Source of the DNA: Thermoanaerobaculia bacterium
GTDB lineage: Bacteria > Acidobacteriota > Thermoanaerobaculia > Gp7-AA8
NCBI GenBank assembly: GCA_035525285.1
Contig: DATLFB010000044.1
Coordinates: 108,441 to 172,440 of the forward strand
Length of the DNA stretch: 64,000 nt
Reading direction: 5' to 3'
Under the pieces are notes generated by a model. The model was given only the letters and a program-made list of their open reading frames with translations, did not search any database and was not told where the DNA came from. This document shows positions 7,591 through 60,925 of the stretch, in pieces; the stretch's first letter is position 1; the number at the start of each line of letters is the position of its first letter. Position numbers and translations under genes: made by a program.

Positions 7591-7594
7591 GGGG

Positions 7595-27729: not shown

Positions 27730-27810
27730 GGGTTGCCCGGTAACCCGGTTGCCCGGTTTCCCAGTGTGTTTTTCTCCGGGCAACCGGGCGACTGGGCAAC
27801 CGGGCAACCA
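27730..27810. repeat. octamer mirror-array element (CCGGTTGC/GCAACCGG family)
   Basis: gggttgcccggtaacccggttgcccggtttcccagtgtg...ccgggcaaccgggcgactgggcaaccgggcaacc. Confidence 0.85.
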
Positions 27811-31120: not shown

Positions 31121-31212
31121 TCCCGGTTGCCCGGTTGCCCGGTTGCCCGGTTGCCCGGTAGCCCGGTAAGCGGCACACTGGGAAACCGGGCGACTGGGCA
31201 ACCGGGCAACTC
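31121..31212. repeat. octamer mirror-array element (CCGGTTGC/GCAACCGG family), in the opposite orientation to the copy at 27730
   Basis: cccggttgcccggttgcccggttgcccggttgcccggtagcccggtaagcggcacactgggaaaccgggcgactgggcaaccgggcaac. The core cacactggg here is the reverse complement of cccagtgtg at 27760. Confidence 0.85.
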
Positions 31213-33817: not shown

Positions 33818-34447
33818 TCACGGCAGCAGGTGATGCTCGACGAGATACCGCACCAGATCCGCGTTGCTCGACATGTTCATCTTCTCGAGCAGGCGGGCGC
33901 GGTAGGTGCCGACGCTCTTGACGCTCAGCGACATGATCGCGGCGATCTCCTTGAGACTCTTCCCCTGACCGATGAGGCGCAGGACCTCGAGCTCGCGCGT
34001 GGAGAGGCGTTCGTGAAGCTCCCGTGGCTGGTCGGACGACAACGACATCGCGATGCGCTCGGCGACGGAGGCACTGATGTATCTACCGCCATCGCTCACG
34101 CGATCCACCGCCGCGAGCAGGTCGGCCGGCGCCGTGTCTTTCGTTACATAACCGGCTGCGCCGTTGCGCAGCGCGCGCAGCGCATAGTCCTCCTCCTGGT
34201 GCATCGTCAGCACGATCACTGGGATCTCCGGCCAGTCGCGACGGATCTGAACGAGCAGGTCGAGACCGCCGCGATCCGGCAGGGACAGGTCGAGCAAAAC
34301 CAGATCCCACCGCTCGCGGGTCAGACTCTCCAGCGTCTCCCGTGCGCTCGACGCTTCACCGAAATGGAACGGCGCCGCCGATCTGGCGAGGATCTGCCTG
34401 ACACCCTGGCGAAAAATGGCGTGGTCGTCGACACACAGAATTCTCAT
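33818..34447 (-). CDS. NarL/LuxR-family response regulator
   Basis: Receiver domain (ILCVDDHAIFRQG...DLVLLDLSLPD) and LuxR helix-turn-helix are present. Confidence 0.85.
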   Translation of the reverse strand: MRILCVDDHAIFRQGVRQILARSAAPFHFGEASSARETLESLTRERWDLVLLDLSLPDRGGLDLLVQIRRDWPEIPVIVLTMHQEEDYALRALRNGAAGYVTKDTAPADLLAAVDRVSDGGRYISASVAERIAMSLSSDQPRELHERLSTRELEVLRLIGQGKSLKEIAAIMSLSVKSVGTYRARLLEKMNMSSNADLVRYLVEHHLLP

Positions 34448-35811
34448 GACTGGAAAGGGTTCCCCGAAACCGGAAGAATGACTCTGACGAGCGTGCCTTT
34501 TCCCTCGCCGGATTCGATCGACACATGTCCACCGAGGAGAAGGGCCCGTTCGCGGATGCCGACGAGTCCGAGCGACTCCGGCGCGGCCACCCTGGCGGGA
34601 TCGATGCCCCGGCCATTGTCGCGGATTTCGAGCCGGATCGATTGATCGTCGCCACTCAGACGTACCTCGACGGTGGACGCAGCGGCGTGACGGACGACGT
34701 TCGCCAGCGCCTCGCGCACGATGCGCAGGATCGTCGAGGCGGTCAGCTGGTCCACGTCGACCGTTTGCGGCGCAACCAGCGAAGCAGAAAGTCCTGCTTT
34801 CTCATTGAGCCTGCGGACCTGATGCTCCAGCGCGGCTTGCAGACCGAGGTCATCGAGGACCAGAGGGCGCAGCTCGGCCGCGATCCGGCGCACCAACTCG
34901 ATCAGCGAATCGATCGACGAACACAGCGAATTCGCCACCGCCGGTGCGATCCGATCGGCGGGGAAATTCCGGATGTCCATTTTGAGGATCGTCAACGCGT
35001 GCCCCAGCTCGTCGTGAATCTCGCGGGAGATCGTGACGCGCTCCTCCTCCTGCACGGAAAGCAGCTTCCTCGACAGCCGGCGCAGCTCATCATGAGAACG
35101 TTGCAGGTCGGAAGCGCGAAGCTCGACATCATCGATCATCGTATTGAAGGACATCGAGAGCCGCCGGACCTCCGCACTGCCGGCGATCCGGACACGTTCG
35201 CGAGTCCGGCCGGAGGTGATGCTCTCCGCGGTCGCCGCGACCGCTCGCAGCGGCCGCGTCAGGTACGTCGAGATGCCGATCACCGCCAGCACGCCAACCC
35301 CGAGGACCAGGACGCTCATCAGGACCACGGCGATGCGAGCGTTGCGGATCTCCCGTTTCAAACGCTGCAACGACATGCCGACGTAAAGACGGGCGATGGA
35401 CCGGCCGTCGTGAATCGTCTTCATCCCTTCGTACATGGAACCGTCGGCGGAGATTGCCGCACCGTCATTCGTCCTGCGCATTGCCGGCGGCGACGCACGC
35501 TCGCCATGGAACTGGGTGATGATTTCATCCGTGCCGGCGACCACGATGTAAACGACATCCTCGTCGCGCATCGTCGCGCTGAGCGCTTCCTCCAGAGCGT
35601 CGGCGTCCCGGAGGTAGACAGCCGGATGGATCGTGAAGGCGGTCAGATCGAGGATTGCGCTCATCTTGTACGACATCAGCGCGATCGCCTCGCGCTCGAG
35701 ACGCGCGGGGAAATGGAATCCCACGAACGAGAGGAGAATCACCAGAAGCAGTCCCATGGCAACGGACAGCTGTACACGGAACGAAAGCGCCGGCCGCGGA
35801 AGCTGCGTCAC
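34444..35811 (-). CDS. sensor histidine kinase (HisKA_3 / HATPase_c)
   Basis: A TM helix, a periplasmic region and a HAMP-like segment precede the H-box EIHDELGHALTILKMD. C-terminal ATPase motifs are present. Confidence 0.8.
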   Translation of the reverse strand: MTQLPRPALSFRVQLSVAMGLLLVILLSFVGFHFPARLEREAIALMSYKMSAILDLTAFTIHPAVYLRDADALEEALSATMRDEDVVYIVVAGTDEIITQFHGERASPPAMRRTNDGAAISADGSMYEGMKTIHDGRSIARLYVGMSLQRLKREIRNARIAVVLMSVLVLGVGVLAVIGISTYLTRPLRAVAATAESITSGRTRERVRIAGSAEVRRLSMSFNTMIDDVELRASDLQRSHDELRRLSRKLLSVQEEERVTISREIHDELGHALTILKMDIRNFPADRIAPAVANSLCSSIDSLIELVRRIAAELRPLVLDDLGLQAALEHQVRRLNEKAGLSASLVAPQTVDVDQLTASTILRIVREALANVVRHAAASTVEVRLSGDDQSIRLEIRDNGRGIDPARVAAPESLGLVGIRERALLLGGHVSIESGEGKGTLVRVILPVSGNPFQS

Positions 35812-36233
35812 CGCGTCATCTCCACGATCCTGACGGACGCCGGTCGCAATCCCGCGGTAATGTAACCGATGGCCCCGGGATGATCCGCGACAAAGTCGAT
35901 CACGTCATCATCCGACTGCAGCTCGACGGGTGGCACGCCGCGCCCGGAAAAGATCTTGCGATGCCAGTACCGCAGCATGAACGCCGGTTCCTTGTCATAA
36001 ACAGCCTTGAGAAATCGCGCTCGCACCACTGCACGGATGGGCTGGTCCACGGGCAGGATCCGCGTCCCGTCGTCCCATCTGGTCCTGGTCTTGAGATAGA
36101 TCTCCGCCAGCCGTGCCCGGGAGATCGAGGTGACCTTCACGCCCGGATGAACGATGAGCTGAAAACGCGCCGGCGCAGGCACATCGCGCGCTGCGGCCAA
36201 TGGAGCCAGCAGAACCAACAGAGCCCCTGCCAT
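35808..36233 (-). CDS. periplasmic PBP-like (phosphate-binding-like) domain protein
   Basis: Signal peptide is MAGALLVLLAPLAAA. Contains LIVHPGVKVTSISRARLAEIYLKTRTRWDDG. The ORF-track N-terminal extension from 36596 overlaps the outer-membrane protein gene, and I rejected it. Confidence 0.5.
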   Translation of the reverse strand: MAGALLVLLAPLAAARDVPAPARFQLIVHPGVKVTSISRARLAEIYLKTRTRWDDGTRILPVDQPIRAVVRARFLKAVYDKEPAFMLRYWHRKIFSGRGVPPVELQSDDDVIDFVADHPGAIGYITAGLRPASVRIVEMTR

Positions 36234-36259
36234 GGTCGTCCGCAACGCGCTGCCGCTCC

Positions 36260-37342
36260 TCAGAAACTCGCCGCGAGACTCAGGATCGCGTAACGGGTGC
36301 GGTACGGTGGATCCGTGATCGTCACCGGGACGTCCTCGACGAGCAGACCGGAATTCGAATGACCCTCGACCTTCACGACCACGGCCGGTGCGACGGCGTA
36401 GTTGACAGCCAGGGCATAGTCGCGGTCGATCTGGCGATTGACCACGACCCGTCCGGCCGCGAGATAGAGCCTCGACTGCTCGACGCGTGCATGGATGCTC
36501 CAGCGCGGATGAACCTGCGCGCCGGCCTGCACATAGGCAGACCGGTAGGCGCCGATGTCCCCATCGACTTCCAGGGCTTCGGCCGCCACCGACCATCGAT
36601 CGAAGTCCGCCTCGATGGAGGCGTGAGTACCGGAATACACCGCCACCGTTCCGGGCGGCCGGAAGAGCAGATTGCTCACGTCGGCCCGATAGTGACCCGC
36701 GCCGAACCGAAGACCGACGATGGGAGTATTGATCCAGAGCTGGCCGCCGACGGCATCATCGACGTCCGCCCGGGTCTCGAAATCTTCCTGGACGAAGTCC
36801 CACTCTCCGTAGTAGAGATCGGCATCGAAGCTCCACGAGCCGAATGCCGGAATCGAAGCCGACAGGACGGCTCCTTCAACGGTCTCATTGCTGTACTGTC
36901 CTTCGCCGTAAACCCCGGTGGCCGGCCGGTAAAAGGGAAAGGTCGTGCCGGCGTCCCGTGACTCGTTGTAGATGCCGAGAGGAATCGGAATCCGGCCGAC
37001 CTTCAGAGAGAATTTCTCCGTCAGCTCCCGCTGGTAAAAGGCCCAATCGATCTCGACGTCATCCTTGAGCTTCGCCACCGGACTGTCGCCAAGGCGCTCG
37101 TGGCTGAACTGCACGATCAGCACGTTGCGCGGGCTTTGCTGGTAGCGAAACTGGAGGGCCAGATCGCGGTAGTCGCTCGTTCCGTCCTCGCCGATCCCCA
37201 GGATCTGATGACCGTCGCTGCGGGCGTAGGCCTGTGACAGATATCCATGCACGGAGAGTCTCGTCAGCTCCTCTCCTCGCGATACGCGTGCCATCGATAA
37301 CACGGCGATCACCGACATGCACGCCGCACTCATTCGGCTCAT
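36260..37342 (-). CDS. outer-membrane beta-barrel (porin-like) protein
   Basis: A signal peptide and an alternating beta pattern are present, with a C-terminal SLAASF. It is the first gene of a minus-strand operon with the binding protein, kinase and regulator. Confidence 0.55.
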   Translation of the reverse strand: MSRMSAACMSVIAVLSMARVSRGEELTRLSVHGYLSQAYARSDGHQILGIGEDGTSDYRDLALQFRYQQSPRNVLIVQFSHERLGDSPVAKLKDDVEIDWAFYQRELTEKFSLKVGRIPIPLGIYNESRDAGTTFPFYRPATGVYGEGQYSNETVEGAVLSASIPAFGSWSFDADLYYGEWDFVQEDFETRADVDDAVGGQLWINTPIVGLRFGAGHYRADVSNLLFRPPGTVAVYSGTHASIEADFDRWSVAAEALEVDGDIGAYRSAYVQAGAQVHPRWSIHARVEQSRLYLAAGRVVVNRQIDRDYALAVNYAVAPAVVVKVEGHSNSGLLVEDVPVTITDPPYRTRYAILSLAASF

Positions 37343-37584
37343 CGAGCCCTCCTCTCACACGGGTCGACGTGATCACGCATACCACGAAGTTCCACATCAC
37401 CGACACCGGACTTCCTTTTTTCCTACGCAGCGATGCTTCATATTCGCCTGTTCGTGAGATCGTCGCGTCACTATCCTGTCACGACCGGCTCAGAGCGTGA
37501 CCCAAGTGTACCCATTCGCCGGGTCAGTTTCTGATTGCTTCGGTGAGATGAATGCCCACAAGTAAAGAAAGGAAAAAGCTCGCG

Positions 37585-39180
37585 ATGCGTAAGACCCTTT
37601 TGTTCCTTTGTACGGTCCTGCTTGCCGTTCCCATGTTCGCCGCGAACGGAGGCAACCAGGATCTCGAACGTTACATCGTCGTGTTCAAAAACGGGCTCGG
37701 TCCCGACGCGCACGCCGCGCTCCGCGGATCCGGGGCGATCACCGCGCTGGAACTGCCGGATCATCGAGCGGCTGCCGCGTACATGAGGCCGCAGGCGGCC
37801 GAGGCGCTGGCGAGAAACCCGAACGTCGAGCTCGTCGAAGTCGATGCGAAACGGTATCCGCTCGCGTGGACGAACACCAGCTCGGGCGGGGAGACGACGC
37901 CGTACGGCATCAAAGCGGTGGAAGCGAACCTTTTCAGCGCCGGTGCCGGGATCGGCTCGTGTACCGTCTGCATCATCGACTCCGGGTACTTCATTCAGCA
38001 CGACGATCTTCAGGATTCACCAGTCGTCGGAGCCCCGCAGGGGACCGAGAATGTGTTCGAAGATGGTTGCGGTCACGGCAGCCACGTTGCCGGCACGATC
38101 TCGGCGATCACCGGCAATGGCGTGGGCGTGTCGAGCGTCAACGGCGGCCGGAACCTCAATCTGGTCATCTCCCGCGTGTTCGACAACAACTGCTCCTGGG
38201 CCTTCGCCTCGAGCCTGATCAAGGCGCTCGACGCCTGCAAGGCCAAGCGCGGCTCGAACAAGATGGTCGTGAGCATGAGCCTCGGCGGAAGCTTCAAGAG
38301 CCGCACCGAGGATCAGGCGTTTGCGAAGGCCTACAACGAAGGCATTCTCTCCATCGCCGCCGCTGGCAACGGCGGCAACACACAGACCTCGTATCCGGCG
38401 GGCTACACGTCGGTCGTGTCCGTCGCCGCGATCGACGCCAACGAAGCTCTCGCCAGCTTCTCGCAGCGCAACAAGGACGTCGAGATCGCCGCACCCGGCG
38501 TCTCGGTCCTCTCGACCGTTCCCTGGAAGGGATCCTCGATCACCGTTGACTCAGTCAAATACCTCGGCAGCCACATCGCCAGTTCCGCCACCACCGACGG
38601 CGTCTCGGGCGCGCTGGTCAGCGGCGGCCTCTGCGACACGGTCGGAAGCTGGAGCGGGAAAACCGTCCTCTGTCAGCGCGGCACGATCAGCTTCAAGCAG
38701 AAGATCGACAACGTCACCGCCGGCGGCGGCGTCGCGGCTGTGATCTACAACAACGTCTCCGGGGGATTCGCCGGCACGTGCGACGACGGTTCGGGCACGA
38801 CCTGCTCCGGCGTCGGCATCGGCATCAGCAAGGAAGACGGCGAATTTCTGGTGGGGAACAAGCTCGGACTGACGGGTACGACCGTGGCGTCGCTCAGCAC
38901 CGACTGCGGCGACGGCAAGGCGGTCGCTTGCGGTTATGAGGCATGGGACGGGACGTCAATGGCCACCCCGCACGTTTCGTCCGTCGCGGCGCTGATCTGG
39001 AGTCATGACACCTCAAAGACCAACGCCCAGGTCCGCGATACAATGAACAAGACGGCGAAGGATCTCGGCTCCGCCGGCCGCGACAACAGCTTCGGCTACG
39101 GCCTCGTGAAAGCGCTCCGCGCGAGGGATTGCCTGCTGGGCACTGGCCCGTGCACACCGTCCACCGCTCCTCTCCCGTAG
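37585..39180 (+). CDS. secreted subtilisin-like serine protease (S8) with I9 propeptide and PA-domain insertion
   Basis: Signal peptide ends ...FAANG. An I9-like segment (YIVVFKNG) is followed by the catalytic D/H/S motifs ([19 protein letters not shown]). The PA-like insert is at about 360-440 aa. Confidence 0.85.
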   Translation: MRKTLLFLCTVLLAVPMFAANGGNQDLERYIVVFKNGLGPDAHAALRGSGAITALELPDHRAAAAYMRPQAAEALARNPNVELVEVDAKRYPLAWTNTSSGGETTPYGIKAVEANLFSAGAGIGSCTVCIIDSGYFIQHDDLQDSPVVGAPQGTENVFEDGCGHGSHVAGTISAITGNGVGVSSVNGGRNLNLVISRVFDNNCSWAFASSLIKALDACKAKRGSNKMVVSMSLGGSFKSRTEDQAFAKAYNEGILSIAAAGNGGNTQTSYPAGYTSVVSVAAIDANEALASFSQRNKDVEIAAPGVSVLSTVPWKGSSITVDSVKYLGSHIASSATTDGVSGALVSGGLCDTVGSWSGKTVLCQRGTISFKQKIDNVTAGGGVAAVIYNNVSGGFAGTCDDGSGTTCSGVGIGISKEDGEFLVGNKLGLTGTTVASLSTDCGDGKAVACGYEAWDGTSMATPHVSSVAALIWSHDTSKTNAQVRDTMNKTAKDLGSAGRDNSFGYGLVKALRARDCLLGTGPCTPSTAPLP

Positions 39181-39203
39181 TCAGATCCATTCGTGAAATC
39201 GCA

Positions 39204-39234
39204 GACGCCCGGCGGAAACGCCGGGCGTTTTTTG
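39204..39234 (+). terminator. rho-independent terminator
   Basis: gacgcccggcg-gaaa-cgccgggcg followed by tttttt. Confidence 0.8.
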
Positions 39235-39516
39235 TTGGTGCGCTTTCATGGGAGCCGCTGCAACCGCAGCTTCTCGATCGCCGACGATTCACTTCCGATG
39301 TTCCGACAGGAGCGCTTCCAATCGAGGGGTTGCGATATGACCCGCCTGAGCGTGTATTGACCCACTTTTGCGGCTCATTCATGCAAAAAGAATTAACTTC
39401 TGACCCTTGCGGATTTCTTCGTCGCAGCCAAATCGTTTCTTTACAAGCACATGCTTTATGGCGTGATGCTTGCCTCGGGCGGGACCTCGTCTGAAAGTAG
39501 ATGGAGGGTAAAAGGA

Positions 39517-41100
39517 ATGAGAAGGCTTTTCATTACGGTGATCCTGTTGGGCGTCGTTCCGGCAATCGCGCAGAATGGCAACGCGAATGGGCGCGCGCTG
39601 GAGGCGTCGATGGCACACTTCAACGCGAATGCACGGGCGTATGGGCTTACGAATCCGCAGGCGGAGTTGAAGGTGCGTAATGCTCTCCGCGATTCGCTCG
39701 GCCAGACACACGTTCGCTTCGATCAATACTACGAAGGCGTCCGTGTGTTCGAAGGGCAGGCGATCAGTCACGTCGACGGCAAAGGCCGCGTATCCTCGGT
39801 CACGAACGCCATCCGCGGCAACTTGAGAATCAGTACGACGCCGTCGGTCTCGGAATCGACTGCAACGGCGAAGGCGCTTGCAGCGGTCAATGCCCTCGGC
39901 GGAGCGTCGGCCACCGCAACGCTCGAGATTCTGCCCGAGGGACAGCGCAGTTCCATCGACCGCCTGGTCTGGCACGTGGTCGTCGAGGTGGAGAACGACG
40001 CCCAGGACCGCGGCCAGTGGGATTACTTCGTCGATGCAAACAGCGGCGACGTGGTGTGGTCGTTCGACTCGCTCGAGACGAGCAACGCCACGGGAACCGG
40101 CCGCACGCAGTATCTCGGCGACCAGAGCGCCAGCCTCGACCTCGTCAGCGGCACTTATTATCTGCGCGACGTCTCGCGCAGCAGCGGTAACTACACGTGT
40201 GACAAGAACAACAAGACCAACGCGCCGCAGTGCACGGTCTTCTCCAATACGTCGGGCATCTTCGGCGATGGCGTGCTCGATGGAAGCAACCGAGGGACGA
40301 GCGCGGCGGACGCGCACGTCGGCCTGCAGTACACCTGGGACTACTACAAACTGGTCCTCGGCCGCAATGGAATCGACGGTTCCGGCACGAGGAGCTATTC
40401 GCGCGTGCACTACGGCAGCAACTACAACAACGCCTTCTGGAGCGATAGCTGCTTCTGCATGACGTACGGCGACGGCTCGGGCACGCCGGGCGGAACGTCC
40501 GGTTTCCTTCCCCTCGTCTCGATCGACGTCGCCGGGCACGAGATGACCCACGGCGTGACCAGTACGACCGCCGATCTGACGTATTCGGGAGAGTCGGGCG
40601 GTCTCAACGAGTCGACTTCCGATATCTTCGGAACGATCGTCGAGTTCTATGCGAACAGCGCGAAGGACGCTCCCGACTATCTGATCGGCGAAATGATCTA
40701 TCCCTCGAACTGGAACACGGACGGAACCTGGAAGAACCTTTCCTCGCCGAAGGCCCTTCGCTACATGACGCAGCCGTCGCTCGACGGAAAGAGCCCGAAC
40801 TGCTGGTCCAGCGGGATCGGCAGTCTGGACGTCCACTACTCATCGGGCCCGAACAATCACATGTTCTATCTTCTGTCCAAGGGCGGCACCAGCGCCTGCA
40901 ATGGGAACGTCGTGGGCGCCATCGGCAACGACGCCGCGGCCAGAATCTGGTACCGCGCGCTGACCGTGTATATGACTTCGTCGACGAACTATGCCGGCGC
41001 GCGCCAGGCCGCTTTGAAAGCAGCGACCGATCTGTATGGGACGGGCTCGACCCAATACAACGGCGTGGCGGCGGCATTCTCTGCGATCAACGTGAACTGA
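39517..41100 (+). CDS. secreted thermolysin-like metalloprotease (M4) with FTP/PepSY propeptide
   Basis: A GGAGGG Shine-Dalgarno precedes the start. Signal peptide ends ...AIAQNG. Propeptide contains HVRFDQYYEGVRVFEG. The catalytic motifs HEMTHGV and ESGGLNESTSDIFG are present. Confidence 0.85.
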   Translation: MRRLFITVILLGVVPAIAQNGNANGRALEASMAHFNANARAYGLTNPQAELKVRNALRDSLGQTHVRFDQYYEGVRVFEGQAISHVDGKGRVSSVTNAIRGNLRISTTPSVSESTATAKALAAVNALGGASATATLEILPEGQRSSIDRLVWHVVVEVENDAQDRGQWDYFVDANSGDVVWSFDSLETSNATGTGRTQYLGDQSASLDLVSGTYYLRDVSRSSGNYTCDKNNKTNAPQCTVFSNTSGIFGDGVLDGSNRGTSAADAHVGLQYTWDYYKLVLGRNGIDGSGTRSYSRVHYGSNYNNAFWSDSCFCMTYGDGSGTPGGTSGFLPLVSIDVAGHEMTHGVTSTTADLTYSGESGGLNESTSDIFGTIVEFYANSAKDAPDYLIGEMIYPSNWNTDGTWKNLSSPKALRYMTQPSLDGKSPNCWSSGIGSLDVHYSSGPNNHMFYLLSKGGTSACNGNVVGAIGNDAAARIWYRALTVYMTSSTNYAGARQAALKAATDLYGTGSTQYNGVAAAFSAINVN

Positions 41101-41479
41101 TCGCTGCTCTCCGCGAAACGAGGAGGGGCTCCCAATGGGAGCCCCTTGTCGTCTGCGCGTACCGCGCCGGGCGTTTCTCACTTCCCCGCCATGATACTTC
41201 CTGTTTTCTTACACGTGCCGTGATGAGCCCTGACGGCGGCGCTCAGTACGGCGGTCGTGTATTGGCGCACAAATGGACCCACTTGCGCATCCATTGATCC
41301 ACCATATCGTGCATTTTCGGGCCAAATAGCGCAACGCCTGACCCATCTCGCCGACGTCGTGAAAATGCTCGATGCGCCTAAGTGAGTGTGGCTCAATGAG
41401 TTGGATGCTTTTTCACCGAATGGGCGCCGCATCCGCTAAGTCGAATCGCCCGAAAGCAACGTGGAAGGAGCATCAATTC

Positions 41480-43123
41480 ATGAAACGAGTCCTCATCATG
41501 GCCCTGGCAGTATTGATGACGCCAGTTGTATTCGCGTCGAACGGAGAGATCCGGCGGAACAGCCGGGCGATCAAAGATCAGTACATCGTCGTGTTCAGGG
41601 CCGGCGCTGTGCGTGATGTGCCGGCGGCCGCGGCGGAGATGGCGCGGATGAACGGCGGCCGGCTGGGCCATGTGTACAGCCGGGCGTTGCAGGGATTTTC
41701 CGTCGAACTGTCCGAAGGCCGGGCCCGCGCGCTCGCGAAGGATCCCCGCGTGGAGTACGTGGAAGAGGACGGCCAGGTGACGCTCGGGGCGACGCAGAGC
41801 AACGCCACCTGGGGACTCGACCGCATCGACCAGCGCGATCTGCCGCTGAGCGGTAGCTATACGTACAACTACACCGGCTCGGGAGTGAAGGCCTACATCA
41901 TCGACACCGGGATCCTGGCCTCGCACAACGAGTTCGGCGGCCGGGTGGTCAGCGGTTACACCGCCATCAGCGACGGCCGGGGCACGACCGACTGCAACGG
42001 CCACGGCACGCACGTCGCGGGCACGGTGGGCGGCGCGACGTACGGCGTGGCCAGGAGCGTGACTCTCGTTCCGGTGCGCGTGCTGGACTGCAACGGATCG
42101 GGCACGAATTCCGGCGTGATCGCGGGCGTCGACTGGGTCACGTCCAATCACGGCGCGGGCCAGCCCGCCGTCGCGAACATGTCGCTGGGCGGCGGGGCCA
42201 GCTCGGCGCTCGATACCGCCGTCAACAACTCCATCAACGACGGCGTGACCTACGCCGTGGCGTCGGGCAACGACAATAAAGACGCCTGCAACTACTCGCC
42301 GGCGCGCGTGGCTGCCGCGATCACCGTCAACTCCAGCACCTCGTCGGACGCGCGCTCCTCGTTCTCGAACTGGGGCACGTGCACGGACATCTTCGCTCCG
42401 GGCTCGAGCATCACTTCCGCGTGGTACACGAGCAACACCGCGACGAACACGATCAGCGGCACGTCGATGGCCACGCCTCACGTGGCCGGCGTCGGTGCGC
42501 TGTATCTCCAGTCCAACACAAGCGCCTCGCCATCGACGGTCTGGGCGGCGATCCGCGACAGCGCGACACTGAACAAGATCACCAGCGCCGGGAGCGGCTC
42601 GCCGAACCGCCTGCTCTACTCGCTTCTCAGCAGCGGCGGAGGCGGCACGACCACGCAGCTTCTGAGCAACCCGGGATTCGAGTCGGGCAACAACGGCGCC
42701 TGGACCACGACCTCCGGCGTGATCACGAATTCCACCTCGCGCACGCCGCAGGCCGGCTCGTGGTACGCATGGCTCTGCGGCTACGGTTCCTCGCATACCG
42801 ATTACGCCTACCAGCAGATCTCGATCCCGTCGGGTGCCACCGCGGCGACTCTGAATTTCTATCTGAAGATCGACACGGCCGAGACGACCACGAGCACGGC
42901 GTACGACAAGATGTCGGTGCAGATTCTCAACTCCTCCGGGAGCCTTCTGGCGACTCTGGCGACGTATTCGAATCTGAACAAGAGCTCGTCCTATTCGCTC
43001 AAATCCTTCGACCTCCTCGCGTACAAGGGGCAGACCATCCGGGTCCGCTTCTACGCGACGGAGGACAGCATCTACCAGACTTCGTTCCTCGTCGACACGA
43101 CATCACTGAACGTGACCCAGTAA
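41480..43123 (+). CDS. secreted subtilisin-like serine protease (S8) with a C-terminal beta-sandwich domain
   Basis: A GGAAGGAG Shine-Dalgarno precedes the start. Signal peptide ends ...FASNG. I9 segment (YIVVFRAG), then HGTHVAGT and [11 protein letters not shown]. About 170 extra C-terminal residues. Confidence 0.85.
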
Positions 43124-43191
43124 GTCAATCAACAACCGACTGACCCGCCTGAAGCGGCAGTCAACAGTCAACAGCAGGAGGATGTATCGCT

Positions 43192-44451
43192 ATGCACGGG
43201 AAAAAGTCCAGGTTGATCGTCATCTCCATCGTGGTTCTCTCCGCCGTCATCTCATCTGCACTCTGGGCGCAGTCACGTTCCGACGATCGTGAATTCACCC
43301 CGCGTGTCCGTCAGGAAGTGACTCTGCCGGTCATCGTGGTCCTGCGCGACGACGTGACGGTTCAGGCCAGTACGCCAGTCGACGTGATGCTCGATGAACG
43401 GGCCGTCGCCGCGCCCGAGGCCTGGTCCTATCTGAGCGCATCGGTGGTGGGCAGCGTCCGGTCGCTGGAGAATAGTCACGGATTCAAGGCCGAGCACGTC
43501 TACAGCGCGGCCCTGCGCGGTTTCTCGGCCCGGTTGTCGGCCCGGCAGATCGAGGCGCTGGAGCTCGATCCTCGCGTCGATTACATCGAGCCCGATGGAA
43601 CGATGCACATCATCGCCCAGACTCTTCCCTGGGGCATCGACAAGATCGACGCCGACGTCAGCTCCACTCTGGCCGGCAACGGCAGCGGAGCGATCACGAA
43701 CGTCAACGCCTATGTCATCGATACGGGCATCGATACCCACACGGATCTCAACCTGGTCGGGCACGTGAATTTCGCCGGCGGTCCGAACAAGGACTGCAAC
43801 GGTCACGGCACGCATGTGGCCGGAACGGTGGCGGCGAAGGACAACACGCAGGACGTGGTCGGCGTGGCGCCGGGCGCACCGCTGACCGGCGTGAAAGTCC
43901 TCGGCTGCGGCGGGAGCGGCACGACCTCGGGCGTGATCAAAGGCGTCGACTGGGTCACCGCGAACGCCAAAAAGCCGGCCGTGGCGAACATGTCCCTCGG
44001 CGGCAGTGCGAGCACGGCTCTCGATGACGCCGTTCGCAACTCGGCGAACAGCGGCGTGTTCTACGCCCTGGCCGCCGGCAATGACGGTGCCGACGCCTGC
44101 AACTCGTCGCCGGCACGCGCCGGTGCGGGAACCAATAACGGCATCATGACCGTTGCCGCGACCGACAGCGCCGACAAGGAAGCCTCCTGGAGCAACTACG
44201 GCAACTGCGTCGACATCTGGGCGCCCGGCGTGAGCATCCTCTCCACGAAGAAGGGCGGCGGCACCACCACGCTGTCCGGTACGTCGATGGCTTCGCCGCA
44301 CGGCGCGGGCGGCGGCGCGCTGTATCTCTCATCGCATACGGGTGCCAGCCCGTCCACGGTCGAAGGCGCGCTCAAGAGCGCGGCCACGACCACGGCCAAC
44401 AAGAGCAAAGACGGCCGGACCATCACCCGCGAGAATGTCGGCAGCTTCTGA
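43192..44451 (+). CDS. secreted subtilisin-like serine protease (S8)
   Basis: An AGGAGG Shine-Dalgarno precedes the start. A signal peptide is followed by HGTHVAGT and GTSMASPHGAG. Confidence 0.85.
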   Translation: MHGKKSRLIVISIVVLSAVISSALWAQSRSDDREFTPRVRQEVTLPVIVVLRDDVTVQASTPVDVMLDERAVAAPEAWSYLSASVVGSVRSLENSHGFKAEHVYSAALRGFSARLSARQIEALELDPRVDYIEPDGTMHIIAQTLPWGIDKIDADVSSTLAGNGSGAITNVNAYVIDTGIDTHTDLNLVGHVNFAGGPNKDCNGHGTHVAGTVAAKDNTQDVVGVAPGAPLTGVKVLGCGGSGTTSGVIKGVDWVTANAKKPAVANMSLGGSASTALDDAVRNSANSGVFYALAAGNDGADACNSSPARAGAGTNNGIMTVAATDSADKEASWSNYGNCVDIWAPGVSILSTKKGGGTTTLSGTSMASPHGAGGGALYLSSHTGASPSTVEGALKSAATTTANKSKDGRTITRENVGSF

Positions 44452-44591
44452 TTCTGACCACGTCGAATACACGTACCCCATCGAGCGGCGGCTCCCGCGA
44501 AGGAGCCGCCGCAGGGGCCTGTGGATCCGGCGGAAGCGAGGAAGAACGGCGCACCGTGCCGGCTCCCCACAACTGAGAGAGGAGCACATTA

Positions 44592-45731
44592 ATGAAGCGA
44601 TTCACGACCATCGTCCTGACATTTTTCTTCACCGTTCCCATCCTGGCCGGCAACGGCGATTTTCGCCGCGCCGGCGGAAAAGCAATCAAGGGTCAATACA
44701 TCGTAGTGCTCGAAGATCACGTCGCCGACGTTCGCGGTGCGGCGGCCGTGCTCTCGCGCATGCACGGCGGCGACGTCGGCTACGTTTATGAGAGCGCGCT
44801 GCGAGGCTACTCGGTGCGAATGCCGGAAATGGCCGCGCGCGGACTGGCCCACGACCCGTACGTCAAGTACGTCGAAGAGGACGGCGAGGTGTCGATCAAC
44901 ACGACCCAGACGTCGCCCGTCTGGGGCCTGGACCGGATCGATCAGCGCAATTTGCCTTTGAGCAATTCGTTCACGTACACGTACACGGGAAGCGGGGTTC
45001 GCGTGTACGTCATCGATACCGGCATTCGAACGTCTCACGGCGAGTTCGAAGGCCGTGCTTCACGGGTCTACGACGCCTTTGGCGGCAACGGCAGCGATTG
45101 CAACGGTCACGGAACGCACGTGGCCGGGACGGTGGGCGGAAAGACCTATGGCGTTGCCAAGAAGGCCTATCTTCGCGCCGTGCGCGTTCTCGACTGCGGC
45201 GGATCCGGTACGTGGTCTCAGATCATTGCGGGCGTGGACTGGGTGAGGGCCAATCACATCAAGCCGGCCGTTGCAAACATGAGCCTGGGCGGCGGAGCCA
45301 ACAGCTCGGTCGACACGGCCGTCAATAATCTGATCAACGCCGGAGTCACCGTGGTCGTCGCCGCGGGAAACAGCAACGCCAATGCCTGTAACTACTCGCC
45401 CGCTCGCGTAGGAGCGGCAATCACGGTCGGCTCGACTACGTCGACGGACGCCCGCTCTTCGTTCTCCAACTACGGCTCGTGCCTTGATCTTTTCGCACCC
45501 GGCTCGAGCATCAAGTCGGCGTGGTACACGAGCGACACGGCGACGAACACGATCAGCGGAACATCGATGGCATCCCCTCACGCAGCCGGCGTCGCGGCGC
45601 AGTATCTCCACCGTTTCGGCAACCAGTCTCCGTCCACGGTGCGCAATGCGCTGGTCAACAACGCAACGAGCGGAGTTTTATCGAGTATCGGAAGCGGATC
45701 GCCGAACCGCCTTCTCTTCACCAATTACTAA
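44592..45731 (+). CDS. secreted subtilisin-like serine protease (S8), close paralog of 41480-43123
   Basis: Signal peptide ends ...LAGNG. I9 segment (YIVVLEDHV), then GHGTHVAGT and GTSMASPHAAG. Confidence 0.85.
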   Translation: MKRFTTIVLTFFFTVPILAGNGDFRRAGGKAIKGQYIVVLEDHVADVRGAAAVLSRMHGGDVGYVYESALRGYSVRMPEMAARGLAHDPYVKYVEEDGEVSINTTQTSPVWGLDRIDQRNLPLSNSFTYTYTGSGVRVYVIDTGIRTSHGEFEGRASRVYDAFGGNGSDCNGHGTHVAGTVGGKTYGVAKKAYLRAVRVLDCGGSGTWSQIIAGVDWVRANHIKPAVANMSLGGGANSSVDTAVNNLINAGVTVVVAAGNSNANACNYSPARVGAAITVGSTTSTDARSSFSNYGSCLDLFAPGSSIKSAWYTSDTATNTISGTSMASPHAAGVAAQYLHRFGNQSPSTVRNALVNNATSGVLSSIGSGSPNRLLFTNY

Positions 45732-45818
45732 AGCGAGGGCTGCGATGAGCGGCGCGCCCGCGGGCCGCGTCGAGGCGGGGGTTCCCATCGAGAGAGCCGC
45801 CGCCAGGGAGGGGCACTG

Positions 45819-46427
45819 GTGGATCTGATGAATGCGCAAGCGCAGTCCCAGCAGCGCCCCCACAGCGTTCTCGATGTCCGGCTTTCCGCGGGAAGCGACG
45901 AGCGGTATGCCGTGTCCTTCGCCCTGGCGGGCGGGGCCGGCCCGCACGAGCCGGACCATTCCATCGACCTGGCGTGCTTCCGTTTCACGCTGCACTACTA
46001 CGCCCGCGTCCTGTACGAGCTCGTGCGGCACGAGAAGTCCGTCCGAAACCTGCCGCGCATGATGGGACGAATCTCGGCCACGGCCATCGATCCGGCCTCC
46101 AATCTCTTCGAGATCGCCGGCGTTCGGGCGGTGTTGGCGCCGGTCGTCGCCGATCGGATCTCCGCCGTTCTGTCTCTGCGACCCTGTGGTCTGCGCGTGT
46201 ACGAGATCGACGGCGACCTGTCGCGTTTGCGCGGCTCGAAACTGGCCACCTCCGCAGTCGCGGTTTGTCAGGCCGCGCTCCGTCACCTCTCACCGGCGAA
46301 CATCGAAGCATTGCCGGTGGCGCTGGCGAACATGAACGCCTCCTACGAAATGACGCATCGGTTCGGGGATCCGAACAGCCAGTACGAAGTCCCGGGTAAC
46401 GCATATTACGCAACCGCCTTTGTATGA
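45819..46427 (+). CDS. hypothetical cytoplasmic protein, 202 aa, inside the protease island
   Basis: A GTG start is preceded by GGGAGGGG at a 5-nt spacing. There is no signal peptide and no recognised domain. Confidence 0.45.
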   Translation: MDLMNAQAQSQQRPHSVLDVRLSAGSDERYAVSFALAGGAGPHEPDHSIDLACFRFTLHYYARVLYELVRHEKSVRNLPRMMGRISATAIDPASNLFEIAGVRAVLAPVVADRISAVLSLRPCGLRVYEIDGDLSRLRGSKLATSAVAVCQAALRHLSPANIEALPVALANMNASYEMTHRFGDPNSQYEVPGNAYYATAFV

Positions 46428-46494
46428 CTTCCGGCGTCTGTCCGGCTCATCGGCATCAATCACATCGAAACGACCCGGTAGAGAGGAGAAATTG

Positions 46495-47676
46495 ATGACA
46501 ACGCGCTTTTCTGCTCTGGTGGCTTTCGCAGCAGTGTTTTTCGCGGGCAGTGCTTTCGCAGGGGACGTAGGCGGAACTGTCTACTCCAATCCGGGAACCA
46601 TCACGTTGCGGCTGGAGTGGGGCTCGAATTTCGGGAGCTCAAAAGAAATCAACAAGACCGGCGACGGATCGTATGCATTCGGCGTGAACATCCGCAACAA
46701 CACCAAATACCGCGTGATCGGGAAATCGGCGCCGACCGGCTGGGCCTGCAAGGGCAAGCAGATCGACAAGTACATCACCTCCGCGGCAGCGACGAAGACG
46801 CATGTCTATTGCGGATCGTCGAGCTCCGCGGGCATCCGGGTCGGTTCCTGGAATCTCGAGTGGTACGACAGCGCTGATGCCGTCGACAAGAAGAAGGCGA
46901 TCGCCGCGCTCATCAATCAGTACAACTTCGACGTCGTGATCGCCAATGAAGTGCTGGACGAGGCCTCCTGGAACGACTTCATCACCAATTACCTCGGCAA
47001 CGCTTCCAATTGGGATTACCGGATCTCCCAGGCCGGCTGCTCGCTGCGACAGGTCACGATGTGGAAGAAGAGCAGCGTGACGTTCGAGTCGGGGTATGAC
47101 CTGAACTGCGCCACGACGAACTGCATCATCGACGAGAACAGCGCCACGTGGGACGACTGCGGCGGACGGCGACCCTATGTCGCGAATTTCGCGGTGAACA
47201 ATTCAACCGTCAAATTCACCACGGCCACGATCCACTTCAAGGCTTACACGACGACCACCGACTGCCAACTGCGCAAAGACCAGGTGGATACGTTCGTGCA
47301 ATGGGTGGACTGGGCCGGCATGGGCTCGAAGAACTTCGTCGCCGCCGGCGACTACAACGATCAACTTGCCGGCACCGGCAACTGCAGCTCGATCGACACC
47401 CTCGCGTCGATGGAATCGCATTCCGGCTTCTGGTTCGCGACCGCTCAGCCGGGCTATTTCTATTCGCACATGATGGGCAATGGTCTGGTGACCTACGACA
47501 CGAAGAGCTTCCAGAACACCATCGACCACTTCTGGGTGACCAACAGCCTGTTCGATCTTCTCGAGACCACGGTCGACACCTACGGCAACCGGGCCAACGC
47601 CGTGCAGGCGAACATGTATTTTTCGGCGGCGGGAGAGCCGGATCACAACCCACCGTACATCGTGATCAAGAAGTAG
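46495..47676 (+). CDS. secreted endonuclease/exonuclease/phosphatase (EEP) family protein
   Basis: A GAGAGGAG Shine-Dalgarno precedes the start. The signal peptide is MTTRFSALVAFAAVFFAGSAFA. EEP motifs are present (VGSWNLEW, DVVIANEV, DHNPP). Confidence 0.75.
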   Translation: MTTRFSALVAFAAVFFAGSAFAGDVGGTVYSNPGTITLRLEWGSNFGSSKEINKTGDGSYAFGVNIRNNTKYRVIGKSAPTGWACKGKQIDKYITSAAATKTHVYCGSSSSAGIRVGSWNLEWYDSADAVDKKKAIAALINQYNFDVVIANEVLDEASWNDFITNYLGNASNWDYRISQAGCSLRQVTMWKKSSVTFESGYDLNCATTNCIIDENSATWDDCGGRRPYVANFAVNNSTVKFTTATIHFKAYTTTTDCQLRKDQVDTFVQWVDWAGMGSKNFVAAGDYNDQLAGTGNCSSIDTLASMESHSGFWFATAQPGYFYSHMMGNGLVTYDTKSFQNTIDHFWVTNSLFDLLETTVDTYGNRANAVQANMYFSAAGEPDHNPPYIVIKK

Positions 47677-47699
47677 CGCCAGGGAACCTCTGCACGAGT

Positions 47700-47770
47700 G
47701 TCATTCCGCGCCGCGAAGACGGCGAGGAATCCCCCGAATCAGGGGATTCCTCGCTCACGCTCGGAATGAC
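47700..47770. repeat. perfect long palindrome GTCATTCCGCGCCGCGAAGACGGCGAGGAATCCCC-CGAATCA-GGGGATTCCTCGCTCACGCTCGGAATGAC (SLTLGMT family)
   Basis: It lies between convergent gene ends (the EEP gene and dsbD) and is a likely bidirectional terminator. Confidence 0.9.
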
Positions 47771-47789
47771 ACATTGACCCGCCGGTCAG

Positions 47790-49556
47790 CTATCGGGGAG
47801 AGGGGACTGAGCGCACGCGCGCGAGGAAGTCCGCGGGGGGCTCGAAGCCGCTGAGCCGCAGGTCGGTCAGCTCGCGCCCGCTCGAGTCGAGGAAGACGAG
47901 CGTCGGGACGCCGAGGATTCCGTACTCCTTCGTCAATCGCTTCGTGGTCTCGTCGTCGGGTGCGGTGAGATCCGCCTTCACGCGTACGAAGCGATCCAGC
48001 TCCGCCACCACCGCGGCGTCGGTGAACGTATTCGCGTCGAGCTCCTTACACGGCAGGCACCAGTCGGCGTAGAAGTCGATCACCACCGGCTTGTTCGCCG
48101 CCTTCGCGGCCGCGAGCGCTTTCGCGTCGTACTTCTCCCACTGCACTTCGACCGCGTGCTTCTTCGGAATCGCGAATGCCACGCCGGAGACGAGCAGGAG
48201 GATCGAGATCGCGATCCGCCACACGCGCGCGCCCTGCGCACGGCCTGAGAAGAAGAGGAACGCCGCGCCGACGAGCAGGCTCGCGGCGACGCCGTACTGG
48301 AACGCGAAGTCGCCGATGATCGGGCGGACGAAGTAGAACGCCATCGCGATGAGGATGAAGCCCATCGCCTTCTTCACCTGCACCATCCATTCGCCCGAGC
48401 GCGGCAGCGCGGTCATGCCCGATGAGAAGATGCCGAGCAGCAGATACGGCACGCCGAGTCCGAGGGCGAGAACGAAGAACATGAGGAAGCCGAGGAACGG
48501 ACTCTGGAGGCTGCTCACGAGCGCGATCAGCGAGATCACGAACGGTCCGACGCACGGCGCGGCGACGATGCCGATCAGCAGTCCCATGGTCAGCGCGCCG
48601 GCCAGTCCCGCCTGTCCGCCGGAGCGGCTGGTGATGAACTGCGGCACGCGGATCTCGAAGAGCCCGAACATCGACGACGCCATCACGAGCATCAATCCGG
48701 CGAAGAAGAAGAGGACGCCGGGATGCTGCAGCCAGGCGCCGAAGAGTTTTCCGGACAGCGCGGAGAAGACGCCGAGCACGGAGTACGTGACGGCGATGCC
48801 GAGCACGTAGAGCGACGAGAGCGCGGCGCGGCGTCCGGTGCTGCTGCCGCTCTGCGAGCTGAAGTAGCCGATCGTGATCGGGATCAGCGGATAGACGCAT
48901 GGGGTGAGATTCAGCGCGAGGCCGAGGACGAAGATCGCGAGGAGCGTGAGCGGCAGCCCGCGCTCGGCAAGCGTCCCTTTGACGTCGCTCGAGAAAAGGC
49001 TCGATTTCGCCTTCGCACCCTTCGGCGCCGCACTGAGCGGCGTAAACGTAGCGGCGGGCTTCAGCCCGCCGGCGGGCGCCGCGGTGATCTTCGCGAGATC
49101 GATGGTCGCGATCGCATCCGCGGGCGGCAGGCAGACGCGATCGCTGCAGGCCTGATAGCGCAGCTTCGCGGTGAGCGCCGTCGCGCCGGCATCGAGCGTG
49201 GCGGTGAACGGAATCGCGATCGTGCCGTCGTACACCGCGAGCTCTTTTCCGCCGGTGAACTCGAACGCCTTCATCGCGTGCGCCGGGTATTCGAGCTTCG
49301 CGTCGCTCGCGCCGGCGAACGTCAGGACCGTCGGAATCGCGAACTCTTCGAGCGGCGTGGCCGAGTTGACGTGCCACCCCTCCGCGATCTTCGCGGTGAC
49401 GGTTCCCTCGATCGCGTCGCCGTCACGCTTCTGCAGCGCGCCGTCGATCGTCACCTTCGGCGACGCATCGCCGCCGGGAAAATCGAGCTGGGCGGCGGCG
49501 GAGACGGCGGTGAGGAGGAGGAGAAGAAAGACGAGACTTCGGTGTGTCAACGTCAC
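47790..49556 (-). CDS. dsbD: thiol:disulfide interchange protein DsbD
   Basis: An N-terminal periplasmic alpha domain, a cytochrome-c-biogenesis-type TM core, and a C-terminal thioredoxin domain with WCLPCK are present. Confidence 0.85.
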   Translation of the reverse strand: MTLTHRSLVFLLLLLTAVSAAAQLDFPGGDASPKVTIDGALQKRDGDAIEGTVTAKIAEGWHVNSATPLEEFAIPTVLTFAGASDAKLEYPAHAMKAFEFTGGKELAVYDGTIAIPFTATLDAGATALTAKLRYQACSDRVCLPPADAIATIDLAKITAAPAGGLKPAATFTPLSAAPKGAKAKSSLFSSDVKGTLAERGLPLTLLAIFVLGLALNLTPCVYPLIPITIGYFSSQSGSSTGRRAALSSLYVLGIAVTYSVLGVFSALSGKLFGAWLQHPGVLFFFAGLMLVMASSMFGLFEIRVPQFITSRSGGQAGLAGALTMGLLIGIVAAPCVGPFVISLIALVSSLQSPFLGFLMFFVLALGLGVPYLLLGIFSSGMTALPRSGEWMVQVKKAMGFILIAMAFYFVRPIIGDFAFQYGVAASLLVGAAFLFFSGRAQGARVWRIAISILLLVSGVAFAIPKKHAVEVQWEKYDAKALAAAKAANKPVVIDFYADWCLPCKELDANTFTDAAVVAELDRFVRVKADLTAPDDETTKRLTKEYGILGVPTLVFLDSSGRELTDLRLSGFEPPADFLARVRSVPSPR

Positions 49557-58482: not shown

Positions 58483-58514
58483 GCCGAGGATCATTGCAAA
58501 TGGAACGCCGCCTG

Positions 58515-58592
58515 TGTGGAGTGCGGCGACGCCAGTCGCCGCTTCTCTACGCGCATACAACAGCGGCGACTGGCGTCGCCGCACTCCACATC
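58515..58592. repeat. MITE-like element with terminal inverted repeats of about 30 bp (TGGAGTGCGGCGACGCCAGTCGCCGC...GCGGCGACTGGCGTCGCCGCACTCCA)
   Basis: The same inverted repeats, with a longer internal spacer, occur at 476-590 between the ABC ATPase and permease genes. Confidence 0.85.
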
Positions 58593-60765: not shown

Positions 60766-60925
60766 CCCGAGCGCAGCGAGGGACCTGGGGGTCAGGGCGG
60801 CGCGAGCACGGCGCCACCCGCCCGCCCGGGTCCCTCGCTCACGCTCGGGATGACGTGGGGTCACTTCTCCACCTCCACCGGGGTCACTTCTCCACCTCCA
60901 CGTGGGGTCACTTCTGCACCTCCAC
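60761..60925. repeat. SLTLGMT-family palindrome (60761-60854) followed by 3 tandem copies of a GGGGTCACTTCTCCACCTCCAC unit of about 23 bp (60855-60925)
   Basis: gtcatcccgagcgcagcgagggacc...ggtccctcgctcacgctcgggatgac, then gtggggtcacttctccacctccaccg repeated three times. Confidence 0.85.

Follow-up and report, generated by a model that had tools for sequence, protein, structure and literature searches.

The genome of a soil bacterium of the Thermoanaerobaculia (Acidobacteriota; assembly GCA_035525285.1) raises the question of how bacteria of this class control the enzymes that they send outside the cell. The stretch analysed here, hereafter the window, comprises 64,000 nucleotides (nt) of contig DATLFB010000044.1 (positions 108,441 to 172,440; positions below count from its first letter). 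In it, seven genes of the + strand, g1 to g7, lie head to tail between 37585 and 47676 (Table 1): four code for S8 subtilases, one (g2) for an M4 metalloprotease, one (g6) for an uncharacterised cytoplasmic protein of 202 amino acids (aa), and one (g7) for a secreted enzyme of the EEP superfamily. An initial annotation, made from the sequence alone, had already named this composition, which Pfam profiles and catalytic motifs confirm, and had taken the genes for a co-regulated scavenging arsenal with a common upstream hexamer. Is the motif real, and does it tie these genes together? Comparison with related genomes suggests that members of a hitherto undescribed regulon for secreted hydrolases, in which sigma-54 and an enhancer-binding protein would take part, are probably gathered in the cluster.

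The upstream element and the promoter-like box

The motif is enriched, as the initial annotation implied. In the 1,255 nt of gaps, TGACCC or its complement GGGTCA occurs seven times versus 0.49 expected, a number reached by none of 5000 dinucleotide shuffles, and GACCCA occurs four times versus 0.51 expected (12 of 5000 shuffles). A hexamer of this type had been claimed for every upstream region, which holds only for the first part of the cluster: exact GACCCA is found upstream of g1, g2, and g3 only and TGACCC upstream of g1 to g4 only, whereas g5 and g6 have no comparable motif and g7 is preceded only by CGACCCGG. The two 9-mers CGTGTATTG and GACCCACTT, said to be shared by the two longest upstream regions, are indeed there and occur in the whole window only at 39351/39359 and 41256/41276, in the gaps before g2 and g3.

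On sequence comparison, the GACCCA motif is part of a larger conserved cis-element, whose unit, GCKCA-N5-TGAYCC, is an imperfect inverted repeat with the half-site ATTGAYCCAC. This 16-mer was derived from other genomes; in the window it has three matches (37488, 41285, and 41329) versus 0.18 expected, all of them upstream of g1 and g3, and the half-site is exact at 39356 upstream of g2 and at 41293 upstream of g3. Copies of the element are usually two or three, about 20–23 nt apart. The geometry of the unit is, to judge from its sequence, that of a dimer-binding site; the dimer site of NtrC has the same 5-N5-5 arrangement.

The genes differ in how much of this signal precedes them. The g1 element falls in the gap common to g1 and a divergent outer-membrane-protein-like gene, and its unit, GCTCA-N5-TGACCC, is also the one that precedes the first 'preM10' gene of the relatives. 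Upstream of g2, the first two copies are 20 nt apart, as in the M4 orthologue of contig L049, and they are followed by TGGCGTGATGCTTGC, the sole match in the window to TGGC-N7-TTGC, in which the GG of the −24 part and the GC of the −12 part are exactly 10 nt apart, as the spacing rule of sigma-54 promoters has it. The g3 unit is that found upstream of preM10-2 and of g6 in relatives; its copy at 41285 contains the exact half-site ATTGATCCAC. A single TGACCC precedes g4.

Two other places in the window hold similar sequences. A cluster of TGACCC at 60789–60905 was rejected as a regulatory site. It comes from an alpha-2-macroglobulin gene (60908–63991, minus strand, immediately preceding the PBP1C gene), whose 3′ end, stop codon included, is tandemly tripled: a unit of 23–24 nt, which holds the last codons (VEVQK) and the stop, stands three times in a row at 60853–60927 and yields the misleading cluster. 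Between the convergent g7 and dsbD, ATTGACCCGCCGGTCA (TGACC-N4-GGTCA, 47773–47788) comes near to the half-site; it lies where no promoter would be and folds into a small hairpin beside the long terminator.

The comparison set consisted of about 40 related contigs, coded L001 and so on. Many of them (L001 at 7370–9915, likewise L003, L005, and L009–L030) carry a pair of genes for a secreted protein of ~190 aa without family and a minimal secreted M10 metalloprotease of ~195 aa (HEVGHVIGIGH), and these M10 pairs are often tandemly duplicated, each behind its own element and promoter. Across 507 kb of loci with g6 homologues, the background of TGACCC/GGGTCA is 0.39 sites per kb, and clusters of sites are found almost only in the gaps upstream of M10 pairs or directly upstream of g6 where it has no such pair immediately before it on its own strand. 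The aligned layout in relatives is GGGTCA-N17-GGGTCAAT, then GCGCA-N5-TGATCC (or GCTCA-N5-TGACCC), then, ~90–110 nt further on, TGGCTCA-N4-TTGGA, and last a ribosome-binding site. Loci that are more distantly related have TGGCAATCGCATTGC, TGGCAGTCCGTTTGC, or TGGCAGATCGTTTGC as the final box, which is the canonical sigma-54 pattern TGGCA-N6-TTGC. By locus, close relatives have TGGCTC-N5-TTGG, L027, L028, L030, and L037 have TGGCA-N6-TTGC, and L036 has TGGCACACGCGATGC.

The element and the box go together, and they precede genes of several unrelated kinds: M10, M4, S8, and EEP genes, as well as g6 homologues, in dozens of related contigs. Among 23 loci, GCKCA-N5-TGAYCC is nearly confined to gaps upstream of hydrolase or g6 genes; it stands ~60–150 nt upstream of the −24/−12 box, and the box 15–95 nt before the start codon. 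When both features were demanded jointly (at least two TGAYCC sites within 300 nt and a −24/−12-like box in the last 130 nt), 26 of the 57 upstream regions of hydrolase or g6 genes had them, versus none of 243 other upstream regions. Nearly all the controls that had two sites belong to divergent neighbours using the same gap. The 10-nt spacing of GG and GC is found in g2 and in 18 related regions.

Individual families repeat this picture. The M4 relatives of g2, which come from metagenomes, never have S8, g6, or EEP genes alongside. In a subset of them that includes the nearest sampled relative of g2 (L036, L037/38, L043, and L049), there are two copies of TGACCC/GGGTCA each, followed by boxes reading TGGCACACGCGATGC, TGGCAGCGGCATTGC, or TGGCCTGCGGCGTGC and by a weak one in L043; in the orthologues of L036, L037, and L049, the box is at the same position as the −24/−12 element of g2. 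Orthologues of g5 (L069–L071, 73–80% identical) stand alone, each with its own TGAYCC sites and a box (TGGCATCGCCGCTGC, TGGCAGCGCGCCTGC, or TGGCAGTCCGCTCGC) 36–47 nt before the start. The g7 orthologue of L072, also alone, has GGGTCA-N25-TGACCC and TGGTCCTCCGATTGC, the latter 45 nt before the start.

Side observations were made around the element in these contigs. In L001 (4679–7105, minus strand), and also in L003, L012, L017, L022, and L025, the gap that holds the motif lies between the first M10 pair and a divergent operon, which codes for an ABM monooxygenase-like protein, a B12-binding-domain protein, and a histidine kinase and could be a sensor of the regulon. Directly upstream of the element, relatives (among them L005, L016, L017, L019, and L022) carry microsatellites of heptamer units, for instance (CAATCCT)n and (CCAACCG)n. 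The window has an octamer tandem repeat, (CGGTTGCC)n, at 25964, 27738–27810, 31124–31163, and 59377–59408, with 10 matches to the double unit versus none expected; one copy is within the called PBP1C open reading frame.

From these data we infer the following arrangement. The element would be an upstream activating sequence bound by a bacterial enhancer-binding protein, which would drive a sigma-54-type −24/−12 promoter at the distances given above, and external digestive enzymes would probably be switched on together in these bacteria. In the window, g2 has the complete architecture of element and −24/−12; g3, with g4 probably in the same unit, has the element and a promoter-like box one base too long; and g1 has one unit with an inverted GGGTCA and only weak boxes. 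The genes g5, g6, and g7 probably form one unit and have no recognisable signal; elsewhere, the g5 and g7 orthologues and some g6 homologues carry the full signal. Members dispersed in other genomes would have been brought together here, partly by duplication of S8 genes, and the downstream genes would have lost their individual control regions.

Sigma-54 recognises −24/−12 promoters, requires an ATP-dependent activator, and is nearly universal in diderm bacteria with lipopolysaccharide; that the target genes here concern the cell exterior fits a theme proposed for sigma-54 systems (PMC3162934). The likeness to sigma-54 promoters of the NtrC/glnAp2 type lies in the 10-nt spacing of GG and GC and in the repeated dyad-like sites ~60–150 nt upstream. 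The differences are the sequence of the site, the TTGG at −12 in close relatives, and the targets, which are secreted proteases and a nuclease of an uncultured class of Acidobacteria, with an activator that is only predicted. To our knowledge, the site GCKCA-N5-TGAYCC has not been described before, and literature searches found nothing on the element, on its coupling to sigma-54-type promoters before protease or nuclease genes, or on the g6 family. The cis-element, the sigma-54-type coupling in an uncultured class of Acidobacteria, and a regulon family, g6, without assigned fold thus appear to be new.

Alternative readings

Several observations weigh against a sigma-54 regulon that covers the cluster. 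By its count TGGC-N7-TTGC is not significant, with one match in the window versus 1.63 expected, and sequence comparison gives TGGCGTGATGCTTGC meaning only through its position and its conservation in orthologues. No good −24/−12 follows the g1 element, where the best candidate (CGGTGAGATGAATGC, 37541–37555) is weak; the box of g3 departs from the sigma-54 spacing by one base and its function is uncertain; no good −24/−12 element was found upstream of g4; and neither it nor a TGAYCC element is present upstream of g5, g6, and g7. Because of these gaps in the signal, co-regulation of all seven genes is only putative. The notion of a co-regulated arsenal stands for the hydrolase genes and g6 across related contigs, where the element recurs, but within the window the element reaches only g1 to g4 and the full architecture only g2. 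Neither rpoN (searched by the RpoN box) nor a gene for a GAFTGA-type activator is present in the window or in the other fetched loci. Close relatives have TTGG instead of TTGC at −12, and their box TGGCTCA-N4-TTGGA resembles the upstream unit and could be another factor-binding site. The −24/−12 instances were chosen with a pattern that rewards consensus positions, which makes their logo partly circular. Finally, about half of the sampled M4 homologues use ordinary TTGACA-N17-TAnnnT promoters, so that the regulon would be confined to a subclade.

Part of this list would also suit a real element of another kind: an operator, or a −35-like box (TTGACC), of a sigma-70 or extracytoplasmic-function sigma factor promoter, the likeness to −24/−12 being coincidental or due to a second site of the same factor. 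TTGACC and TTGATC do resemble TTGACA; the absence of rpoN and activator genes from the loci covered, the TTGG of close relatives (whose box is like GCTCA-N5-TGGAG), and the lack of a correctly spaced box at g1 and g3 also speak for it. Yet no −10 box lies 16–18 nt from the sites, a consensus scan found no sigma-70 promoter in the cluster, and the sites are 100–240 nt before the start codon. Distant loci, moreover, hold TGG-N9-TTGC exactly while the bases between vary, and a −24/−12-like box is found in only four of the 243 control regions, none of these with sites. This alternative is unlikely, though not negligible.

A second alternative concerns g6 alone, which could be an unrelated passenger kept beside protease genes by inherited gene order. 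The homologues found in 22 species-level genomes and in several contigs from metagenomes lie directly behind one or two M10 pairs; of 20 informative species loci, 15 have this order. In favour of a passenger, most relatives conserve the whole neighbourhood, including an M61 peptidase and a ModABC-like transporter. The linkage, however, outlasts an inversion in the most distant members (L028–L030), where g6 is divergent from the adjoining M10 pair. No M10 pair is beside g6 in L006, L027, and the window; in L006, L026, L027, and L028–L030, an element and a promoter of its own precede g6, and in the first three of these loci no hydrolase gene stands before it. In the window, all its other neighbours have changed, yet it is again between members of the proposed regulon. 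In these loci, g6 without exception either adjoins such hydrolase genes or follows a copy of the element that is its own, and a passenger role is improbable.

Still less can be said for the two-component system of the NarL/LuxR type that adjoins the cluster, for which the TGACCC sites would be operators of local control. The system is adjacent and divergent, and a TGACCC-N17-GGGTCA pair lies in the gap that g1 shares with that operon's first gene; as a lead, the TACCCAT at ~37509 presumably fits the NarL heptamer TACYYMT. Against this, dozens of related loci have the element, while tblastn with this kinase and regulator gave nothing there (E ≤ 1e-8 or 1e-10) except a 36% match to the receiver domain in L033, which has no motif; in addition, the element is coupled to −24/−12 boxes, which NarL-type regulators cannot activate. 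Being unlinked to the motif in other genomes, the system was rejected as the regulator. Finally, that there is no regulon, and that the motifs came with the promoter regions when protease genes were duplicated, as the paralogy of g3, g4, and g5 and the restriction of both 9-mers to two gaps might suggest, is scarcely credible, since the element precedes non-homologous genes (M4, S8 with PA domain, M10 partner, EEP, and g6) in many genomes and the duplicates g4 and g5 have hardly any upstream signal or none.

The g6 family

The initial annotation had called g6 an orphan, which it is not: 57 homologues of about 186–200 aa were found, with 42–57% identity and a nearly invariant C-terminus. All those that bear organism names come from metagenome-assembled genomes of Thermoanaerobaculia, to which the family seems, on present sequences, to be confined; a hypothetical protein of one such genome is 100% identical to g6. 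Searched with a profile, 1.84 billion representative proteins yielded only 93 relatives, including distant proteins of ~200 aa that have LHYYAK, MN..Y, and VPN.AY in common; Pfam has no match over their g6-homologous region. Searches of g6 against sequence libraries, among them Pfam, NCBIfam, PHROGs, and PADLOC, gave no match. The structure prediction that had been proposed for it gave a confident AlphaFold2 (AF2) model, with two beta-hairpins and seven helices (predicted local distance difference test, pLDDT, 91.5; predicted template modelling score, pTM, 0.88), and this model matches no known fold, so that g6 can be placed in no described family.

The family is acidic to neutral (median isoelectric point, pI, 5.8) and lacks a signal peptide. 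A DNA-binding factor is unlikely, with this pI and no match to a helix-turn-helix; a phage or defence protein was rejected for want of PHROGs or PADLOC matches; and the 'preM10' proteins, considered as paralogues of g6, are unrelated secreted proteins. Two distant relatives were found in other surroundings. In L067 (4237–5201), a g6-like gene overlaps the stop codon of the gene for a 119-aa stand-alone receiver domain, downstream of a retropepsin-like protease gene, and in L066 (3850–4911), a g6-like protein of 353 aa is inside an integrase/AlpA/Prim-Pol element. The overlap with a receiver-domain gene hints at a signalling role for g6.

The initial annotation had guessed at a regulator, a chaperone, or an immunity factor dedicated to these enzymes. 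Conserved linkage and putatively shared regulation support a functional tie to the hydrolases, in which g6 may act as any of the three. Judged by gene context, g6 is the only non-secreted protein that recurs throughout the putative regulon, which would make its role general to the regulon and not tied to one enzyme. Our best guess, by analogy, is feedback on the activator or an adaptor for it. Small co-regulated partners are known to modulate sigma-54 activators, as PspA does for PspF and HrpV for HrpS; g6 may be like them as a small cytoplasmic protein encoded within the regulon, and it differs in having no similarity to them in sequence or fold. More specifically, g6 and its relatives of ~200 aa might be a new fold that feeds the state of hydrolase production back to the enhancer-binding protein of sigma-54, perhaps by acting as an anti-activator or an adaptor, a proposal that we put forward tentatively and consider rather unlikely in this precise form.

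Enzymes, transcription units, and genomic setting

Table 1. Genes, upstream signals, and hairpins of the cluster with its neighbours (window positions; a slash marks the end of a signal peptide)
Feature	Positions	Strand	Description
g1	37585-39180	+	531 aa; secreted S8 subtilase with inserted PA domain; signal peptide ...VPMFA/ANG
g2	39517-41100	+	527 aa; secreted M4 thermolysin-family metalloprotease, FTP and PepSY propeptide; signal peptide ...VPAIA/QNG
g3	41480-43123	+	547 aa; secreted proteinase-K/aqualysin-like S8, I9 propeptide, extra C-terminal domain
g4	43192-44451	+	419 aa; secreted S8, I9 propeptide (Pfam)
g5	44592-45731	+	379 aa; secreted aqualysin-like S8, I9 propeptide (Pfam)
g6	45819-46427	+	202 aa; conserved cytoplasmic protein, uncharacterised family; motifs LHYYARVL, ALANMNASYEMTHR..DP..EVP..AY.A..FV-COOH
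g7	46495-47676	+	393 aa; secreted EEP-superfamily protein; N-terminal beta-sandwich and DNase I-like catalytic domain
g1 upstream element	37488-37526	+	GCTCAGAGCGTGACCC (37488-37503) and inverted GGGTCA (37521-37526)
g2 upstream activating-sequence-like array	39338-39406	+	TGACCC at 39338, 39358, 39401; ATTGACCCAC (39356-39365) is an exact half-site
g2 sigma-54-type -24/-12 element	39459-39473	+	TGGCGTGATGCTTGC; 43 nt before the g2 ATG
g3 upstream array	41265-41344	+	GCGCA-N5-GGACCC (41265), GCGCA-N5-TGATCC (41285), GCGCA-N5-TGACCC (41329)
g3 box	41389-41405	+	TGGCTCAATGAGTTGGA; TGGCTCA-N4-TTGGA of relatives with one extra base between -24 and -12
g4 upstream 12-mer	43141-43152	+	TGACCCGCCTGA; in the 68-nt g3/g4 gap; identical 12-mer at 39338
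Intrinsic terminator after g1	39204-39233	+	GC-rich hairpin, then T run; fold z-score -4.9
Terminator-like hairpin after g2	41125-41145	+	Fold z-score -4.7
Hairpin after g4	44485-44512	+	No T run; fold z-score -3.0
Long hairpin between convergent g7 and dsbD	47698-47772		Fold z-score -5.7
Histidine kinase	34444-35811	-	HisKA_3; divergent from the cluster
Response regulator	33818-34447	-	NarL-type; divergent from the cluster
Other upstream neighbours		-	Outer-membrane-protein-like gene; small periplasmic-binding-like open reading frame
Downstream neighbours			dsbD, convergent with g7; thioredoxin-TPR gene

All seven reading frames, including g6 on the + strand, are backed by the periodicity of G+C at third codon positions, and, as had been stated, each start codon has its own Shine-Dalgarno sequence. 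Judged by eye from the translations, six of the seven proteins (g1 to g5 and g7) have N-termini like signal peptides, and the initial annotation was right that four of these end in A-x-N-G; among the proteases, only g4 lacks it. This ending is inherited in the S8 subfamily, where orthologues have AGNGD; M4 orthologues keep it in part only (AQN-x). It was rejected as a regulon-wide sorting signal because it is missing in M10, preM10, g4, and EEP proteins.

The proteases are ordinary enzymes. The S8 proteins g1, g3, g4, and g5 match PF00082 at 128–149 bits (cut-off 21.8), and all four translations have the catalytic triad in order, as (I/V)ID(S/T)G, HG(S/T)HVAG, and GTSMA(T/S)PH; g1 scores 131 bits with PF00082 and 45 bits with PF02225 and has the motifs IIDSG, HGSHVAG, and GTSMATPH. 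The g2 protein matches PF07504, PF03413, PF01447 (140 bits), and PF02868 (162 bits), so both M4 domains are present, and HEMTH and NESTSD supply the HExxH motif and the downstream glutamate ligand of zinc. NCBIfam gave only sub-threshold matches to the proteases of the cluster, which leaves them as generic secreted enzymes. They resemble proteinase K and aqualysin I (S8A) or thermolysin (M4) in domain order, catalytic motifs, and signal peptides, and close homologues of g5 carry the JGI name 'aqualysin 1'; they differ from known S8 and M4 proteases only in the PA insert of g1 and the extra C-terminal domain of g3. Since g3 and g5 are 62% identical, g4 is ~50% identical to both, and g1 is distant, the three aqualysin-like genes g3 to g5 arose by duplication, on the evidence of their sequences.

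The g7 protein has the marks of a DNase I-like EEP enzyme. Its match to the Exo_endo_phos profile (PF03372) is weak (28.2 bits, cut-off 24.5); the motifs WNLE, GDYN, and IDH are present, and 24 homologues all share the catalytic residues E122, D286, N288, D383, and H384. The AF2 model (pLDDT 81.7) has the four-layer alpha/beta sandwich fold, and its top Foldseek matches are DNase I and DNase1L3 (E 1e-12, TM 0.70); TDP2, nocturnin, and a mannosyl-6-phosphatase match as well. Only this ranking of fold matches favours DNase I, so that g7 is a predicted nuclease that may instead be a phosphatase or phosphodiesterase. Bovine DNase I (2dnj) and human DNase1L3 (7kiu) share with it the fold and the catalytic motifs WNLE, GDYN, and DH; g7 differs in being only 12–14% identical and in its extra N-terminal beta-sandwich of ~90 residues. 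Homologues 65–88% identical are found across Acidobacteriota, Gemmatimonadota, and one γ-proteobacterium (Oleiagrimonas), an unusually high conservation across phyla that suggests horizontal spread or very strong constraint. About one-fifth of the EEP homologues (P0272–P0345) have an extra Big_7 domain and a length of ~577 aa.

Hairpins divide the cluster into units that are likely to be [g1], [g2], [g3-g4], and [g5-g6-g7]. No hairpin was found in the g3/g4 (z-score 0.03), g5/g6, and g6/g7 gaps; g4 is thus probably co-transcribed with g3. The long hairpin between g7 and dsbD is probably a bidirectional terminator. In the region 36000–49000, long leaders included, there is no Rfam match at E ≤ 0.1.

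The window has a G+C content of ~65%, and the cluster one of 0.59–0.66 versus about 0.61–0.72 in the remainder. The gaps had been described as richer in A+T than coding DNA; this applies to five of the seven (G+C 0.52–0.58) but not to the g4/g5 (0.66) and g5/g6 (0.78) gaps. The word 'island', used at first for the locus, does not hold in the sense of mobile or foreign DNA: there is no tRNA gene and no integrase gene among the neighbours, the dip in G+C is only slight, and no flanking repeats were found around the genes except those due to paralogy. 'Cluster' fits better. Its order is not kept elsewhere, as orthologues of the M4, S8, and EEP genes have no other cluster genes beside them. The arrangement is lineage-specific, with orthologues in other genomes dispersed and standing alone. 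Elsewhere in the window, a 935-aa protein (3075–5882, minus strand) combines in an unusual way a receiver, a Ser/Thr protein kinase, and a TonB C-terminal domain, and two overlapping tandem genes (56811–58584, minus strand) code for Ku-domain proteins of 296 aa each.

Few groups of soil bacteria are as abundant as the Acidobacteriota, in which the control of extracellular enzymes is almost unstudied. Such enzymes free the nitrogen, carbon, and phosphorus bound in proteins and DNA. A cis-element and a promoter type common to the genes of proteases, nucleases, and their partners would make an exo-enzyme regulon predictable from sequence in uncultured lineages, and would also help in finding the activator and in interpreting metatranscriptomes. 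The analysis singles out a conserved family without structural assignment, g6, as the sole non-secreted member of the putative regulon. If g6 does couple the activator to hydrolase production, soil Acidobacteria would have, in the GCKCA-N5-TGAYCC regulon, a switch for extracellular digestion that limits itself.

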